From a virus (lineage: Duplodnaviria > Heunggongvirae > Uroviricota > Caudoviricetes): a stretch of DNA of 26,402 nt. The stretch's first letter is position 1. Each line of letters opens with the position of its first letter. This document shows, piece after piece, positions 9,001 to 15,000 of this stretch. Position numbers: made by a program. Location of the stretch: IMG/VR virus record IMGVR_UViG_2541047828_000003, positions 1 through 26,402 of that record; one strand, 5' to 3'.

Positions 9001-12000
9001 CGCATTATGGGATGAAATTGATTTCAACAAGGCTATCTGGGAGATACCCGCTTCACGTATGAAAATGCGGCGGCCTCATATTGTGCCATTGTCTGAGCAG
9101 GCTCTTTCGCTTATTGGGAAGATTAGAGAAATAACAGGCAATTACCCTCTTATGTTTCCCGGGCGCAATGATCCAAGGAAAACAATGAGTGAGGCCAGCA
9201 TAAACCAAGTGTTTAAGCGCATTGGCTACGCTGGACGTGTAACTGGTCATGGGTTCCGGCACACTATGAGTACGATTTTGCATGAGCAGGGCTATAACAC
9301 TGCGTGGATAGAAACACAGCTCGCTCACGTTGATAAGAACTCAATTCGTGGCACATACAACCATGCGCAATATCTGGATGGAAGGCGGGAGATGCTTCAA
9401 TGGTATGCCGACTATATGGATTCTCTCGAGCATGGCGGAAATGTGGTGCATATGGTGTTTGAAAAACACGCATGAAACAACTGGACAAGTGTACAGAGGT
9501 TTACTAAAGTATAGGGGAGTAGATTGATAAAAACTCACAGAGGATTGCTATTTAACAGTTAGCCCTGGAGAAGGGCAATCGCTCTTTTATAAACGAAGGT
9601 GTATTGAGCCTTCTACGCTGCTGAAAAGCGGAATGTTCTTTAACAGGCTTTGGCGCTGACAAAGCGCAATTGTTCTTTAAAACTACTGGATGTCACGCCT
9701 AATAGCGTGATCCTGCCGAAATGCAGGGTAGCTCTACCCTTGTGGAGCAAACAAACCAAAACAATCTGACTATCTTTTATAAAAAACCGCAATATGTTTT
9801 TCATATTGTGGTCTTTGGCGTATTCGACATTTGACGCAAATAAAACTCTCGCCATTCGTTGCAGGAGGGGGTTATTGCGTCATTAGTACAGGATATTAAT
9901 AAATGGCTAATTACAATTCATTAATTCGTCTCTCTGAAGTTCAAAGGCGAACTGGTTATAGCAAAGCATGGATTTATCGTCTTATTAGTCAGGGGAGGTT
10001 CCCTAAACAGGTAAAAATTGGAAGTCGGGCTATTGCTTTTGTTGAGTCTGAAATAGATGAATGGATTGAGAAGTGTATATTAGAATCTAGAGACGAGGTG
10101 GCCTGATGGAAAAGAAAAACCGCCCATTACAGGCGGCTAATTCAGATATTCGCGTATCTGATATTACGCCCCTTACAAAATCCCTTCAAGCACCAAAGCG
10201 CACACCGAAAAAGCATCGTGCCCGAGTCTATATGCTGCGTACTGGTATAGAGGGATGGACAGAAAACGACATTCTTCGCTACTGCCGTCTGTCTTCTGGT
10301 CGTAACTATGCAACAGAGTTAGAACGCCAGCTTGGAATCACTCTGGAGCGTATCGACGAAAAGAATCCTGATGGTATCGGAACACACCTTCGCTACCGTT
10401 TCTCCTGCCGTGGTGATGTTCTGAAAGTGATCACTCATATTAACCATCTTGCGAACATAAATGATCACAACGGACTTTCTCAGCAGGAAATTGCCGACAT
10501 TCTGAAACTCTACCCGGACGCGTTTAACGCCGCTTAACGGAGACTGAAAATGAACATCGAAAAAAGCAGATTAATTTCTGAGGCCGCCCCTCATCTGAAC
10601 GCCTCTCTGAGCACAATTAACGGTAATGAATTTGCCGCAATTGTCCCGGTTATTCCTGGTCATATCGGTGGGCGTGAAACCAATATTGTTAGCGCAAAAG
10701 CGTTACACAAAGCGTTGGGCGTGGGAAAAGACTTCTCTACATGGATCACTGATCGCATCTCTGAATATGACTTCACCATTGGGCACGATTACTCAGTCCA
10801 TAAAACTATTTCCCCAAATTTGGGGAAAAGCCCGAATGGCGCGGCTTACAGCAAGATTAAGCAGTCTGGCAGACCCGGCAAAGACTATCTGTTAAGTGTC
10901 GGAATGGCGAAAGAACTGGCAATGATCGAACGCAATGATCAGGGTCGCGCTATCCGCCGTTATTTCATCCAGTGCGAGGAAGAATTACAGCGTAGCGTTC
11001 CTGAAATCGCCGCCCGCTATCGTCGCCAGCTAAAAGCCCGTATCAGTGCCGCAAACAACTTTAAGCCAATGTGCGATGCGCTGAATATGGCCCGTGCCGA
11101 GCAGGGGAAAACGACGCAGCAACACCACTACACAAACGAGAGCAATATGATTTCTCGTATCGTTCTTGGTGGGCTAACTGCTAAGCAGTGGGCGCGGATA
11201 AATGGCTATTCTGGCGAACCTCGCGACCATATGAACGCAGAACAGCTTGAGCACCTCTCATATCTCGAAAGCACCAATATCACGTTAATTGATATGGGCA
11301 TGGAATATGAGCAGCGCAAAGGAGAACTCACCCGCCTGTCGCAACGCTGGCTCGCTAAGCGTCTGGAGGCGGTCCATGTTTAAGCCGACAGGAACATCAC
11401 AACCTCAAAAACGCTACAAAGATGCCCACGGAGCACTCGTTACTGTCGAAAGCGTGTCTCACAACCAAGTGACGTTTTATCGCGACGGGTATCAATCGCC
11501 ATGCGTACAACCGCTGGCACGTTTCATGAAGGAGTTCGCGGAGGTTAACAAATGCTAACCGCCCAGAAGAAGATATTTTCACTGGCTGGCATGTCGCCAA
11601 AATCCAGTAATATGACGGCAAAATCAGGCATTAATACAGCAGATACAAGCAAAGTTTATCATTTGCTGGTGGTAGGAGCGGATGCCTTAACTATGTCAGA
11701 AATCACGGTCGATGGTGTTAGCGTTGAGAAGGTCAGCAGCTGCGCCAGAGAATTTCTGGTCGTAGATGGCTTTCTCTGCTCGCGTAGTGACTCCACAAAA
11801 ACCTTCGTCCACACGCGCGACGTTAACGAAATGAGCGCGATGTATTGTACATCTGGTGCTTCCAATAGTGAGTTTTCGGAGTCCATAAAAAAGAGCTTGC
11901 CGTTATGCGGCAACACGGTTTATGGTTATAAGGCACCTCATAAAACGGGTGCCGGGTTTCGCAGCCCGGAAATGTACGAGGCGACACATGACGCGCCGAG

Positions 12001-15000
12001 CGTCTTTTTTTGTGCCGTTAGCCAGACTCACACTTTTTTCAGTGATGCGGTTATAATCCGCGTCGCTTGCAAAATTATGGTGGGCTGGACAGGGCAGCCG
12101 AAAGGCTGGCCGGTTTCCTTGTACGCCGGTACTGCGAACTCTGTTCAGTCCACCACCAGCGAGTTTCGCAGCTCCGGTGGTGGGAAGAATTCCCAGTACA
12201 AGGAGGCTGCCACATGCTGGCTACTACCCCTACCCAAAAACCGCAATTTATCTGGATTATCGCCGCAGTTCGCCGCGATTGCCCGACAATTACCGCCAAA
12301 ATTCATCATATTGCTGCCGAGTCTGAACGCGATGCTCGCCGTTCTCTGGTGCGCGATCACGTCTGCTTTTTTGCTGGTCGTATCCGCATGGAGGTGGCAC
12401 ATGATTAAAACCTACGATGTGCATATGGATCCCCTCGAACGCACAAGCCAGATCATCACACTGACAGAAGTGATTAATGACATTCTGGTGAGCAACTCTC
12501 CCTCACGAGACGAAAAACTGAAGGCGTTACTCGCGATATTGGATCTCGCCGTTCGTGACGTTCATTTCCTGCTGGAAGGTGGCGAAATGCCAGGAAAAAC
12601 GGGGGCAACCAATGAATAACTCAATTAATGCCCCTCGACTTACGTCCGCACTTCAATTAATCGAGCAAGCAGCGGCTGTCCTGGTTGCTGTCAGTCTTTC
12701 GGCTGAAGAAATGGACGCTGCTGATGTCGTGGATGCGATTAAAGCGTGCTCATCTTTGGTTAACGATGCTCGTGCAGAGCTGGTAATTCTTGGGGGTGAA
12801 AAATGAATATCAACTTAATTTATCGTCATCCGTGTGAGCTGGAAATTGAATCATTGCTGAGCCGTGAAGAGCCATATCCAGACACATTCACTCTTGCAGA
12901 TCGCACGACTGAACGGCTTACCAGAGCGCGCACAGGTCTGGTTCATGTGATGAATGAGATTCTTCCATCGGTGGGAGGGGAACAGGCGACAGTAATCACT
13001 AGCTGGCTACAAAAAGTTACCTCTCTGATAGATATCAGTTTAATCGATGCGGAGAGTGCGAAATGACCAACATCCAGCTCATTGAAGCACAATGTCGCAT
13101 CGAACAGGTTCAGACTGTTTTAGGGTTCTGGCTTGAAGGGGCCAGCCCCAGCAACAGAGACAAGTTAATGATTGGCGCGGTTATGTCACTGCTCAATGGC
13201 GTACCAGAAGCTATTCAGGAAGCAGACGAATTGTTGGGCAAATATGAGTTACAGAATCATTCAGGCGAGGCGAAACATGAATAATTTCTTAACTTTCCAT
13301 GCAGAAGCAACGCCTGACGGCGTAAACATCATGTACCGCAGCAACGATGGAATGACAGAACGCGTTGAGGCCGTCTCATATATTGATGCCGTAAATCGTC
13401 TGGATGCCGGGGATTATGACGATAAACCAGATGAAGGTATGTCAATACATCTCGCTATAGCCGATGGCGGCAACCAGGGATATTTCGATTACACATCACA
13501 GCATAACGTCATTATGTGGAGATGGCTGATCGCAACAGTATTCATGCTGGAAATGAGAGAGGAAAACGGCACTGTCAGCATCATTGATGATACTGGCAAT
13601 CCTTCCGAAGTGGCTGTTTATTCCAACGGCATCGTCGCCATGCCGCTGTATCCAGTAGCAGAGCGCCTCGCTATGGCAAACAACATTGAGGGCGCGATGA
13701 TAGAACGTTTTGGCATCGAGTCTGGCACAGAACGCGCCATCATTTTCTACAGAGCCATGATGGATGTGGAACAAGGAGCACTGACTCCATTTGGTCGTGA
13801 AACGCTTGCTGAACTTCACAACAGCTTTATAGCTGAACTGAATGAAAACGGCATGCCAGCGGAACCAGTGACGCACTGAGGATGGAACCATGATTACTAA
13901 AAATTTCCGACTGAATGCGCTGGCAAATAAGTATGCGTCGGCACTGTATAACCACATTACCTCCACCAGCGGCGGGGACTATTTCATGGTTGATGCGGAC
14001 GGCGAGGCCGTCCGTGTGGAAATCGTCAATGGAGTAAAAGGCGTTCGCAGCCTGATCGATAGCTACACACTAGCAGCCATGAAAGTGTTCTACCCGCAGT
14101 GGGAAACCGTGGGGATCGAGCTTCTTGATCGTTGCGTCACTAAGGACGGATTGACTGACGTCGGGCGTGAGATATGGCAAAGCATGGTTAATGACATGGG
14201 CGCAACTGTAGCGGGAGGTTCTCATGCGTGAAAATGCAGAAATGGCGCTTAGCTCCGCAATCGGAGAGCAGGTGGCAAAGATTGCTGGTGCTGTGTGGAT
14301 TCATAACCTTCATTCTACTGGTGAAGAGAAAATGGCAATTCAGACGCCAGAGGGACGCACCATTACTACATCTCTGAAGCCGTCAGATGTTTGTGATCTG
14401 ATTTGCGCATTCATGTACCCAGCAATGAGGACTGCCCACGGCGATAAGTGGAAACTTGCGACAACCGCTGAATTTGATATGTGGCTAAACAATGATGGCA
14501 TGCTGACTGATTACGGAATAACCAAGTGGCAGATGCTGGTTAGCCATATCGCAAACGCTATAGACCACGTGGGGTACGGTGATGCGAAACATTGATCTTA
14601 TCCGTCAGGTTATCAGTGCGTCTGAAAACAACTGGCCTCATGTGCTGGGCTGCCTGAACATAAATGTCCCTGACTCTCCGCGCCGTCATGCTCCCTGCCC
14701 TGCATGTGGGGGCAAAGATCGATTCCGGTTCGATGACAACGGGCGCGGTAGCTTCATCTGTAATCAGTGCGGCGCTGGTGATGGGCTGGATTTAATTAAA
14801 CGCGTAAATAACTGCGACACAACAGAGGCGGCGCTTCTTGCCGCTGATGTTCTGGGTATTGATTACCGGACAACGGAAACACCAGAAGCCACCAGCCAGA
14901 AACGGGAACAACTGGAAACCGAGCGCCAGCGACGCGAACAGGAGCGCCTGAAAAGGGCAGAGAAGGACGAACAACAAAGACGGGATACGTTTTCCCGTCA

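Follow-up and report, generated by a model that had tools for sequence, protein, structure and literature searches.

A 355-codon open frame spans two structured RNAs

The stretch of DNA analysed here, 26,402 nucleotides in full length and referred to as the window, carries on its plus strand a reading frame of 355 codons that runs from an ATG at 11552 to 12619. This frame, ORF355, is of the 'Ash family' or eta-like read-through type. As a preliminary description of this DNA had stated, it is the sole open plus frame over 11552-12066, the remaining two plus frames having 8 and 14 stops there. The coupled overlap described at its start is also present: the ATG overlaps the stop codon of an upstream DUF4222 gene in the form ATGCTAA, and a GGAGG motif (11540-11544) lies 7 nt upstream of the ATG. 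On these signals, ORF355 would be translationally coupled to the DUF4222 gene. The -35 element of an internal promoter lies 345 nt into the frame, which spans both an isrK-like leader RNA and a C4-type RNA. Further elements that had been listed, namely a CCGGG...CCCGG hairpin (11952-11970), a hairpin (GACGCGCCGAGCGTC) followed by a T7 tract (11990-12011), a TATAAT motif (12052-12057), an AGGAGG-led alternative-frame ORF (12214-12408) and an in-frame GGAGG with an ATG at 12401, were all found in the sequence. The listed features exceed chance, as the 115 N-terminal codons (11552-11896, plus strand), which show no amino-acid constraint, were open in just 211 of 200,000 composition-preserving shuffles (p~0.001), and both hairpin regions scored above the gathering thresholds of curated RNA families.

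A conserved promoter sequence precedes the leader RNA on the plus strand at 11897-11926, with TTGCCG (11897-11902) as the -35 element, TATGGT (11921-11926) as the -10 element and a predicted transcription start at 11933. From its sequence we infer that this element functions as a promoter; its consensus among 48 unique relatives, P4 among them, is GGCTTGC-18 nt-TAtAGT-6 nt-G. It aligns with the promoter-like sequence ahead of the isrK-like leader of P4, which we take to be P4 PLE. The isrK/seqA-like leader RNA itself (11933-12010, plus strand) was recognised by Rfam model RF01394 with 69 bits against a gathering threshold of 50, and a terminator scan assigned the hairpin and T7 tract at 11990-12011 on the same strand as its intrinsic terminator. 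The c4-a1b1 model RF03163, which overlaps isrK, reached 22.5 bits in the window against a threshold of 46.7, and passes in many relatives.

The TATAAT at 12052-12057, previously regarded as promoter-like, forms the loop of a hairpin in the spacer between leader and C4 RNA (12044-12064, plus strand; GATGCGG-TTATAAT-CCGCGTC). The stem of this hairpin covaries (alignment columns 111-118/125-132), and in most relatives its loop does not resemble a -10 element. A simple promoter and terminator scan showed no enrichment over shuffles, and both the TATAAT and the promoter upstream of isrK were absent from its list. The TATAAT is probably not the relevant promoter, the conserved one being located upstream of isrK instead.

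A C4/CI-type antisense (immunity) RNA occupies 12073-12160 on the plus strand (Rfam RF01695; 81.1 bits against a gathering threshold of 45, full-length model match). Covariation, which the preliminary description had proposed as a check, was assessed in 58 relatives, the window included. The C4 structure, consisting of a conserved stem and two hairpins, has 28 pairs, of which 11 show compensatory double changes and almost none are broken. Within it lie the recognition elements b' (TTTCCTTGTAC, 12114-12124) and a' (CTGCGAAC, 12132-12139). These are complementary to the target sites a1 (GTTTCGCAG, 11956-11964) and b1 (GTACGAGG, 11974-11981) in the leader, with duplex energies of -15.3 kcal/mol for a1 and -20.1 kcal/mol for b1. 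Downstream of the RNA they find the targets a2 (GTTTCGCAG, 12163-12171) and b2 (GTACAAGGAGG, 12196-12206), the latter covering the icd Shine-Dalgarno sequence, with energies of -18.1 kcal/mol for a'/a2 and -22.6 kcal/mol for b'/b2; all elements and targets are on the plus strand. The cis helices a1/a' and b1/b' carry 10-21 compensatory double changes per pair. The three-way matches a1/a'/a2 and b1/b'/b2 are maintained across alleles of differing specificity, and own-locus pairings are on average 4-6 kcal/mol stronger than cross-locus ones. Furthermore, the isrK and C4 pair was located upstream of icd in all 59 loci scanned, which had been fetched solely by Icd/Kil similarity, blind to the ORF355 frame. 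The idea of a structured regulatory RNA region, comparable in position to the immunity RNA of P4-like elements, thus proved essentially right, and the resemblance goes beyond position to true homology with the immunity regions of P4 and P1. Indeed, P4's own Rfam matches to isrK (8692-8615) and C4 (the CI RNA; 8507-8420) both fall inside the long eta ORF.

The alternative-frame ORF at 12214-12408 (plus strand, frame +2 relative to ORF355) is an Icd/Kil-like gene of 64 aa (NF033153, 71.7 bits against a cut-off of 25, matched over 12214-12405), whose product is 39% identical to P4 Kil. It is followed on the same strand by a separate 72-codon gene (12401-12619), which has its own GGAGG (12390-12394), overlaps the icd stop by 8 nt as ATGATTAA, and corresponds to the C-terminal 72 codons of ORF355. 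One genome has this gene annotated as a CDS of its own; profile searches gave no family match for it, and no similarity to P4 epsilon was found. The SD-to-ATG distance of icd is 1 nt shorter here than in the common P4-type arrangement, and as a consequence the long frame falls out of register with icd and is fused to the gene that follows. Nesting with icd in the same frame and with a shared stop, the eta/kil-type arrangement found in 56 of the 59 sampled loci and in P4, is absent from the window, where ORF355 ends 211 nt past the icd stop. The earlier proposal of a fused or frameshifted gene was also partly right: it holds for the 1-nt shift relative to P4-type loci and for the fusion to the next gene. 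The genes from alpA to the primase, a replication gene (14579-17338), either overlap (by 1-17 nt) or lie no more than 12 nt apart, with an SD-like motif at each. A scan of 9400-10000 for an upstream 'late' promoter found nothing above chance, and sid, psu and delta were not recognisable within the window.

The frame is kept open but its amino-acid sequence is not conserved

In the ORF355 frame, pN/pS was ~1 over the N-terminal part, leader, spacer and C4 RNA (codons 1-221). For the N-terminal part it was 0.85, equal to the other frames, with variable sites distributed 18/8/15 over the three codon positions, and the N-termini of different element groups were unalignable and thus non-homologous. 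Where ORF355 overlaps icd, pN/pS was 0.28 in the icd frame versus 1.82 in the ORF355 frame; the icd frame is the one under purifying, protein-level selection at 12214-12408. The 72-codon gene showed a pN/pS of 0.56 versus 0.9-1.4 in the other frames, and it is the only part of ORF355 for which AlphaFold2 returned pLDDT values of 50-78. Residues 1-296 stayed below 50, with values of ~25 in the N-terminal part, and are predicted to be unfolded.

The Pfam family PF10554 (Phage_ASH) matches amino acids 124-232 of ORF355 with 99.2 bits against a gathering threshold of 26. Protein-like conservation was not found over this stretch in two independent alignments (pN/pS 0.9-1.15), and its pLDDT was below 50. 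The evidence indicates that this 'domain' consists of translated isrK and C4 RNA sequence, free of amino-acid-level selection, and the Ash family name therefore denotes a reading frame and no folded protein module. The same family matches the old 'cI protein' ORF of P4. In RefSeq, the NCBI pipeline labels the full ORF 'ash family protein' in most genomes, but the annotation is unstable, with identical DNA called either as the full ORF or as a pseudogene fragment (11972-12187 or 11693-12187).

Orthologous islands do preserve the frame: it was uninterrupted at ~355 codons in each of 13 E. coli copies taken by even sampling, one of which had a 13-codon deletion. The codon-level constraint that, in the preliminary description, would have accompanied it in a protein gene was absent from codons 1-283, and the interpretation as a regulatory RNA region therefore stands unrefuted. 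The frame of 355 codons is genuine and conserved, yet it is no ordinary protein gene; as in P4 eta, the open frame appears to be preserved while the amino-acid sequence is not.

Freedom from stops is a conserved and apparently selected property, and the earlier remark that the region 'happens to lack stops' was mistaken. An ORF355-type frame is open over both RNAs in 58 of the 59 loci, the exception being L030, in which a broken frame is tolerated. Stop triplets numbered 3 in the ORF355 frame versus 238 and 329 in the other two frames, where they fall at 37 and 34 distinct positions (71 in total) as compared with essentially none in the ORF355 frame. The leader-to-C4 spacings of 101, 140, 143, 146, 176 and 185 nt all equal 2 mod 3, and in nine loci a 1-nt deletion in C4 is matched by a 2-nt deletion 27 nt downstream. 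Comparison of stop positions and indels among orthologous islands, as had been suggested, thus showed spacing indels in phase and stops confined to the other frames. That the frame passes through icd does not speak for selection, since 37 of 57 (65%) P4-type icd genes have an open icd+1 frame without making use of it. The openness of window-type relatives with different N-termini is ascertainment-biased, since these were retrieved through called proteins; among window-type loci, only two (L006 and L008) and the E. coli copies, which are closely related, are free of this bias.

Comparison with P4, P1/P7 and Gifsy-1

The P4 immunity region was reportedly analysed by Sabbattini et al. in 1995. 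As summarised in PMC10111431, it comprises PLE, seqA, the CI RNA (seqB), seqC and the nested eta/kil genes; this paper, citing Forti et al. 1999, also states that eta is coupled to an alpA homologue, that a constitutive promoter lies inside eta, and that translation of eta prevents termination. The window shares with P4 a set of homologous parts in the same order, from the promoter through the isrK/seqA-like leader, the C4/CI RNA and the RBS target to the Kil/Icd-like gene. In both, the start of the long ORF precedes the internal promoter and overlaps the preceding gene's stop, and the frame continues across the RNAs; also shared are an overlap of 8 nt with the gene that follows and a primase further downstream. 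However, P4 eta shares both the reading frame and the stop of kil and comprises 197-199 codons, whereas ORF355 passes through icd in the icd+1 frame and has 355 codons, including a 115-codon unconstrained N-terminal extension. ORF355 is coupled to the DUF4222 gene and not to alpA, three additional genes intervening, and the gene at the epsilon position is unrelated to P4 epsilon. The recognition sequences are unlike those of P4, and the immunity specificity therefore differs.

The immI region of P1/P7, with its c4 antisense RNA, icd and ant, is said to have been characterised by Citron and Schuster in 1990 and by Riedel et al. in 1993. As in immI, a1b1 lies upstream, the RNA contains a'b', and a2b2 covers the RBS of icd; both systems use one and the same RNA family and Icd family, and the P1-like phages RCS47 and D6 match the window over 11916-12255. 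In contrast, the output of the P1 system is the antirepressor Ant downstream of icd, whereas here an AntA-type gene is located upstream and replication genes are located downstream. In Gifsy-1, an RNA of the isrK family is likewise followed by a C4-family RNA, and orf45 of the isrK-orf45-anrP locus, which lies on the latter RNA in the ORF355 frame and starts at the conserved AUGG, has been shown experimentally to be translated (PMC4825925, Hershko-Shalev et al. 2016). A cis helix published for this locus, joining the middle portion of IsrK to the 3' region of orf45, is the counterpart of the a1b1/a'b' helices of the window. Gifsy-1 differs in that the frame is discontinuous from isrK to C4 (spacing 102 nt), icd is absent, the output is the antirepressor AnrP, and IsrK acts as a trans-activator.

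A probable read-through frame over an RNA immunity switch

We consider it likely, with a probability of about 0.68, that ORF355 is an eta-like read-through frame over the RNA immunity switch of a P4-like satellite island, the anti-termination role being carried over by analogy from P4 and supported indirectly by selection for an open frame that lacks amino-acid constraint. By analogy with P4 and P1, short transcripts from the internal promoter would yield C4 RNA in the quiescent island; C4 would pair with a2 and b2 and block icd translation, and the untranslated transcript would be terminated short of the replication genes. Upon activation, transcription from upstream of alpA would produce a single long mRNA with translational coupling from alpA to the primase. 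ORF355, starting in the DUF4222 stop codon, would fill an otherwise untranslated gap of 655 nt, and ribosomes would therefore traverse the leader, terminator hairpin, C4 RNA and target sites. These ribosomes should keep the structures from folding and deny Rho access to the RNA, rendering the long transcript insensitive to the immunity, as has been reported for the translation of P4 eta. Selection would maintain the open frame and not the polypeptide. The 1-nt difference between icd SD and ATG shifts the frame from that of icd/kil, as nested in P4, to icd+1, and ORF355 ends at 12619 because icd+1 is naturally stop-poor and is the frame of the next gene. Most of this biology is known, and the lineage represents a modest architectural variant of the P4 arrangement.

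It is conceivable, although we judge it unlikely, that the long frame is an untranslated by-product: an ancestral stop-free frame that was inherited, is constrained in sequence by the RNAs and icd, and is picked up by gene callers. The missing amino-acid constraint would fit this explanation, as would the unstable annotation of identical DNA, the default openness of icd+1 in 65% of unrelated icd genes and the discontinuity of the Gifsy-1 frame from isrK into C4. Under such a scenario, however, the hypervariable loops and spacers, which give stops at 71 positions, should not spare the ORF355 frame, nor should all six spacing classes be in phase or 1-nt deletions be compensated by 2-nt ones. The non-homologous N-terminal part is still open (p~0.001), and the ORF355 start has an SD and overlaps the preceding gene's stop, in an operon that is coupled throughout. 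Moreover, nonsense mutations in P4 eta reportedly cause premature termination (Forti et al. 1999, J Bacteriol 181:5225). Less probable again is translation only downstream of an AUG at 12077 on the transcript from the short promoter, by which an orf45-like upstream ORF would couple the downstream genes while 11552-12076 remained untranslated. The AUGG at the 5' end of C4 is invariant among the 58 relatives and lies in the ORF355 frame, with the AUG as codon 176; it matches the start of Gifsy-1 orf45, whose translation was shown to be a requirement for expressing the gene downstream of it (PMC4825925). Against this, an SD-like motif is absent upstream of 12077, and the openness of the 175 preceding codons, the in-phase leader-C4 indels and the coupling to DUF4222 would be left unexplained. 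A start at 12077 is compatible with the read-through explanation and does not exclude it.

We regard it as very improbable that ORF355 encodes a functional 355-aa 'Ash family' regulator within a Bro/antirepressor network, to which the RNA signals would be secondary. Such a protein would account for the strong PF10554 match, the label given in most genomes, the 285 database homologues (many of 328-376 aa), the conserved open frame with its good SD, and the fusion of the Ash segment to Rha, AntA or Bro domains in other phages. The Pfam match, however, coincides exactly with the two RNAs, and variable positions covary as RNA pairs. Codons 1-221 evolve at a pN/pS of ~1, and those over icd at 1.82, as opposed to 0.28-0.56 in the adjoining real genes, and the low pLDDT extends over residues 1-296. 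In P4, the family matches the old 'cI protein' ORF, whereas immunity is carried by the CI RNA, as stated in PMC10111431. Finally, the N-termini are non-homologous between groups, and that of ORF355 contains antisense terminase DNA. This DNA is a fragment captured from a P22-type small-terminase gene (gp3); it lies on the minus strand at 11700-11806, antisense to ORF355, and positions 11785-11806 form a pac-like 22-mer. The pac sequence of P22 can be found in PMC5261728, and of the 17 positions that make up the pseudo-pac pattern in PMC11226127, the window matches 16.

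ORF355 spans a leader RNA, a C4 antisense RNA and an Icd-like gene

The 355-codon frame ORF355 (11552–12619, plus strand) is the sole open plus-strand frame across 11552–12066, where stops number 8 and 14 in the other two plus frames. The ATG of ORF355 and the TAA of the DUF4222 gene before it overlap as ATGCTAA, with GGAGG at 11540–11544. From alpA (9903) to the primase gene (14579–17338) all genes overlap or nearly abut, and without ORF355 this operon would contain an untranslated gap of 655 nt. The signals within the frame that had been listed in a preliminary description, namely two hairpins, a T7 tract, a TATAAT, an AGGAGG-led ORF and an SD plus ATG at 12401, were all found in place. 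Searches with Rfam models identified an isrK RNA at 11933–12010 (plus strand; 69 bits, GA 50) and a C4 antisense RNA at 12073–12160 (plus strand; 81 bits, GA 45). The first of the two hairpins is the middle hairpin of isrK, and the one followed by T7 is the isrK terminator. The AGGAGG-led ORF in the alternative frame (12214–12408, plus strand) is an Icd-like gene, here referred to as icd (NF033153, 71.7 bits versus a cut-off of 25). Furthermore, the single Pfam match on ORF355, Phage_ASH at residues 124–232 (nt ∼11921–12247), coincides exactly with the part that carries both RNAs.

A promoter-like element, GGCTTGC-18 nt-TAtAGT, terminates 6 nt upstream of isrK and is kept in 48 unique relatives, including P4. 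The window has this conserved pair as a putative plus-strand leader promoter with a −35 TTGCCG (11897–11902) and a −10 TATGGT (11921–11926). A role of the TATAAT in driving C4 from an additional promoter was set aside as improbable, as there is no −35 element at 16–19 nt and the motif forms the loop of a hairpin (12044–12064) with a covarying stem, the loops of most relatives not being −10-like. It may nevertheless have this role, since it is kept in three window-type alleles (window-type loci have the long frame in icd+1). Both the isrK promoter and the TATAAT were missed by a simple sigma-70 scan, which also returned nothing exceeding chance upstream of alpA. In addition, a palindrome, TTGCCGTTATGCGGCAA (11897–11913), overlaps the −35 of the leader promoter. 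On the minus strand the scan also scored it as a terminator-like hairpin with a T6 tract behind it, and it could act as an operator or as a terminator in both directions.

The open frame is conserved

Relatives were fetched by Icd/Kil similarity alone from one-genome-per-species contigs, so that the resulting sample of 61 loci, 59 of which were scanned, was blind to the Ash frame, the equivalent of ORF355 in these loci. isrK and C4 lay upstream of icd in all 59 scanned loci. In 58 of them no stop interrupted the Ash frame through leader, spacer and C4, and in 56 of 59 it entered icd in frame and, as it does in P4, terminated with the icd stop. Six classes of isrK-to-C4 spacing occur (101, 140, 143, 146, 176 and 185 nt), each of which is 2 mod 3, and in nine loci a 1-nt deletion in C4 is accompanied by a 2-nt deletion 27 nt downstream that restores the frame. 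Stop triplets were counted in 60 unique sequences over an interval that begins 75 nt ahead of isrK and reaches 50 nt beyond C4. The two non-Ash frames contained 238 and 329 of them (at 37 and 34 distinct positions), and the Ash frame contained 3, two of them from one frameshifted locus and the third an ORF boundary. Thirteen of 13 E. coli copies, sampled evenly down the identity ranking, kept the ORF (355 codons in twelve, 342 in one), and the N-terminal 115 codons of the window were open by chance in ∼0.1% of shuffles. The open frame is apparently under selection. The preliminary description had proposed a structured regulatory RNA region that happens to lack stops. With isrK, C4 and the Icd-like gene identified, its RNA reading stands in substance; its appeal to chance was wrong, given a frame open in 58 of 59 loci and spacing classes that are all 2 mod 3.

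The only sampled locus with a broken Ash frame was that of Phytobacter diazotrophicus (L030, 2115–2409), where a frameshift lies within C4 and the C4 Rfam match is 86 nt long. This locus is a possible natural knockout for comparison.

The polypeptide is not under selection, except at its end

In ten window-type loci, the pN/pS in the ORF355 frame was 0.85 for the N part (0.82 in the other frames), 1.06 for the isrK segment, 0.91 for the spacer, 0.92 for the C4 segment, 0.90 from C4 to icd and 1.82 for the icd overlap, where the icd frame itself gave 0.28. Only the last 72 codons differed, with 0.56 in the ORF355 frame versus 0.9–1.4 in the others. For the control gene DUF4222, the value in the frame of that gene was 0.45. 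When 38 loci, mostly of the P4 type, with the long frame in the icd/kil frame, were aligned as a second set, they yielded 1.15 for isrK, 0.70 for the spacer and 0.98 for C4. Among close relatives, variable sites were distributed over the three codon positions as 18/8/15 in the N part and as 4/8/18 for icd in the icd frame. AlphaFold2, run with the family alignment, returned pLDDT values below 50 for residues 1–296, and values of 50–78 only for residues 297–347. The ORF355 polypeptide is therefore without selection except at its end. The terminal 72 codons make up a gene in its own right, which is preceded by an SD and is annotated separately in one RefSeq genome; its assignment as a homologue of P4 epsilon was rejected for lack of similarity. 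A minus-strand ORF (11659–11916) was likewise rejected as a coding explanation of the N part, as it had no Pfam hit and the codon pattern of the variable sites did not fit it.

Leader, C4 and icd sites covary as matched sets

Constraint is seen in the RNA rather than in the polypeptide. The C4 RNA has 28 conserved pairs, with compensatory double changes in 11. When the whole precursor, beginning with isrK and reaching as far as the icd start, was folded for 38 loci, helices were predicted between the leader target sites and the C4 recognition elements (a1/a′ and b1/b′), with 10–21 double changes per pair, and additional covarying helices were predicted as well. The a and b alleles differ between loci and yet stay in matched triplets with the target sites downstream of C4 (a1/a′/a2 and b1/b′/b2), own-locus duplexes exceeding cross-locus duplexes by 4–6 kcal/mol on average. 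In the window, b′ (12114–12124) pairs with GTACAAGGAGG at 12196–12206, over the icd SD, and a′ (12132–12139) pairs with GTTTCGCAG, which is present at both 12163–12171 and 11956–11964. Compared with the window, E. coli relatives such as locus L003 are ∼95–100% identical in the flanking genes, and only ∼58–62% identical over the spacer, C4 and the sequence up to the icd start (12011–12213). This pattern suggests that the immunity module is exchanged as a cassette with the frame intact, and it is consistent with several immunity specificities inside one island family, arising from such exchange.

Two further helices involve the C4 basal stem. In a conserved covarying helix, CCGGTGGTGG (12174–12183) pairs with the 3′ strand of the stem (12146–12155; columns 217–224/245–252 of the alignment of relatives, A4), and in a second helix the spacer (A4 columns 87–100) pairs with the 5′ strand. 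Both compete with the mature C4 fold, and they may therefore matter for processing or switching.

ORF355 resembles eta of phage P4

In phage P4 (NC_001609), the Rfam models place isrK at 8692–8615 and C4 at 8507–8420 on the minus strand. Both matches fall within a long ORF (8168–8812) with three consecutive Met codons, giving products of 197–199 aa, and we take this ORF to be eta with nested kil (Forti et al. 1999). Its last 65 codons show 39% identity to the Icd-like protein of the window. According to PMC10111431, the CI RNA is encoded inside eta, and relatives of CI and seqA are picked up by the Rfam models for C4 and isrK. Since the P4 RNAs lie within the long ORF, which has an Icd-like C-terminus, and CI lies within eta, ORF355 is the counterpart of eta. 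In its biology the region follows P4 eta/kil/CI and P1 c4/icd, of which it is an architectural variant of modest novelty.

In the stretch 7888–8584 of P4 (L005), Phage_ASH (PF10554), which covers thousands of annotated proteins, matches the historical 'cI gene product (AA 1-137)' ORF, a part of eta, while the epsilon derepressor matches PF25738 and not PF10554. A survey of P4-like satellites took PF10554 as a marker of epsilon/'Ash' (PMC8628076). As PF10554 matches the cI ORF over the CI RNA, the marker of this survey detects the RNA immunity module adjoining epsilon; PF10554 should thus be read as marking that module, neither a protein nor P4 epsilon.

In Gifsy-1 (L084, NC_010392; 34073–34329, minus strand), a C4-family RNA was found at 34214–34131 (69 bits). 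The 'orf45' published for the isrK-orf45-anrP locus coincides almost exactly with this RNA, its start being the conserved C4 AUGG, and the reported IsrK-orf45 pairing corresponds to the a1b1/a′b′ helices of P1/P4-type immunity. C4 was not mentioned in the 2016 paper on this locus (PMC4825925).

In the window lineage the frame lies in icd+1

Where P4-type loci have GGAGGTTGCCATCATG, the window shares GGAGGCTGCCACATG with its close relatives and a single Symbiopectobacterium locus. The distance from the SD to the icd ATG is shorter by one nucleotide in these, and consequently the long frame falls in icd+1. The openness of icd+1 across icd needs no special explanation, because 37 of 57 P4-type genes have this frame open without using it. 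The next gene lies in icd+1 and overlaps the icd stop as ATGATTAA, in the same geometry as P4 kil/epsilon; ORF355 therefore extends to 12619. The earlier proposal of a fused or frameshifted gene is thus borne out in this specific sense, the frame running through icd+1 into the next gene. The ribosome conduit of the window lineage would have been re-routed from the kil/icd frame rather than lost.

By homology, the leader promoter would be active, the C4 RNA processed, icd translation repressed and transcripts terminated in a Rho-dependent manner, and translation of ORF355 would override immunity. We propose, with a probability of about 0.5, that the Ash domain is not a protein domain but the translated shadow of the isrK/seqA and C4/CI RNAs, kept free of stops only so that ribosomes from the upstream operon disarm the immunity switch, with the frame re-routed in the window lineage and the N part a possible landing pad for captured DNA. 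Comparative support that a reading frame can be kept for the act of translation, and not for its product, extends the evidence beyond a single P4 experiment. Furthermore, the a and b sites are immunity specificity determinants of a widespread E. coli island and could predict mutual immunity among elements.

The finding also explains why the ORF has been annotated contradictorily by automated pipelines. For identical or near-identical DNA, RefSeq gives either the full 1068-nt 'ash family protein' without icd, or icd with a pseudogene fragment spanning 11972–12187 or 11693–12187. Usually icd and both RNAs are omitted; the RNAs are annotated in almost no examined record, the exceptions being one Stx phage record and the APSE phage records.

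A captured terminase fragment in an apparently composite island

Within the N part, ∼107 nt (11700–11806) are ∼88% identical to the antisense strand of the P22-type small-terminase gene (gp3), and 117 phage records match this stretch. The captured portion of gp3 is the part bearing the P22 pac site. A pac-like 22-mer at 11785–11806 (minus strand) reads GAAGGTTTTTGTGGAGTCACTA in the window versus GAAGATTTATCTGAAGTCGTTA in P22 (16/22 identical) and agrees with 16 of 17 positions of the published pseudo-pac pattern (PMC11226127). The island may have a packaging site that a P22-like helper recognises, and the unconstrained N part could act as a landing pad where captured DNA, for instance a pac-like site of a helper phage, is accommodated. 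No phage matches were obtained for the N-terminal segments in two other groups of elements, and the capture is therefore specific to the window lineage.

Downstream of the primase gene, P22-type DNA-ejection genes occupy 18101–22759 (DUF2824, gp7-like, a gp20-like injectosome translocase and a 701-aa ORF). Upstream, a capsid-E-like gene and a Dit-like tail gene lie within 2656–8021, and a second tyrosine integrase (6657–8021, minus strand) stands back to back with the island integrase. The idea that the island sits within a complete P22-like prophage was withdrawn, as in the matching genome of E. coli 20KM2222 the island and flanking phage genes are bounded by tRNA-Thr (thrW) on one side and by the pao genes on the other, and terminase and portal genes are absent from the vicinity. 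The arrangement at thrW-pao resembles satellite-like elements joined in tandem or as a composite. In strain GF8, the ORF region is identical to the window copy and the flanks are different.
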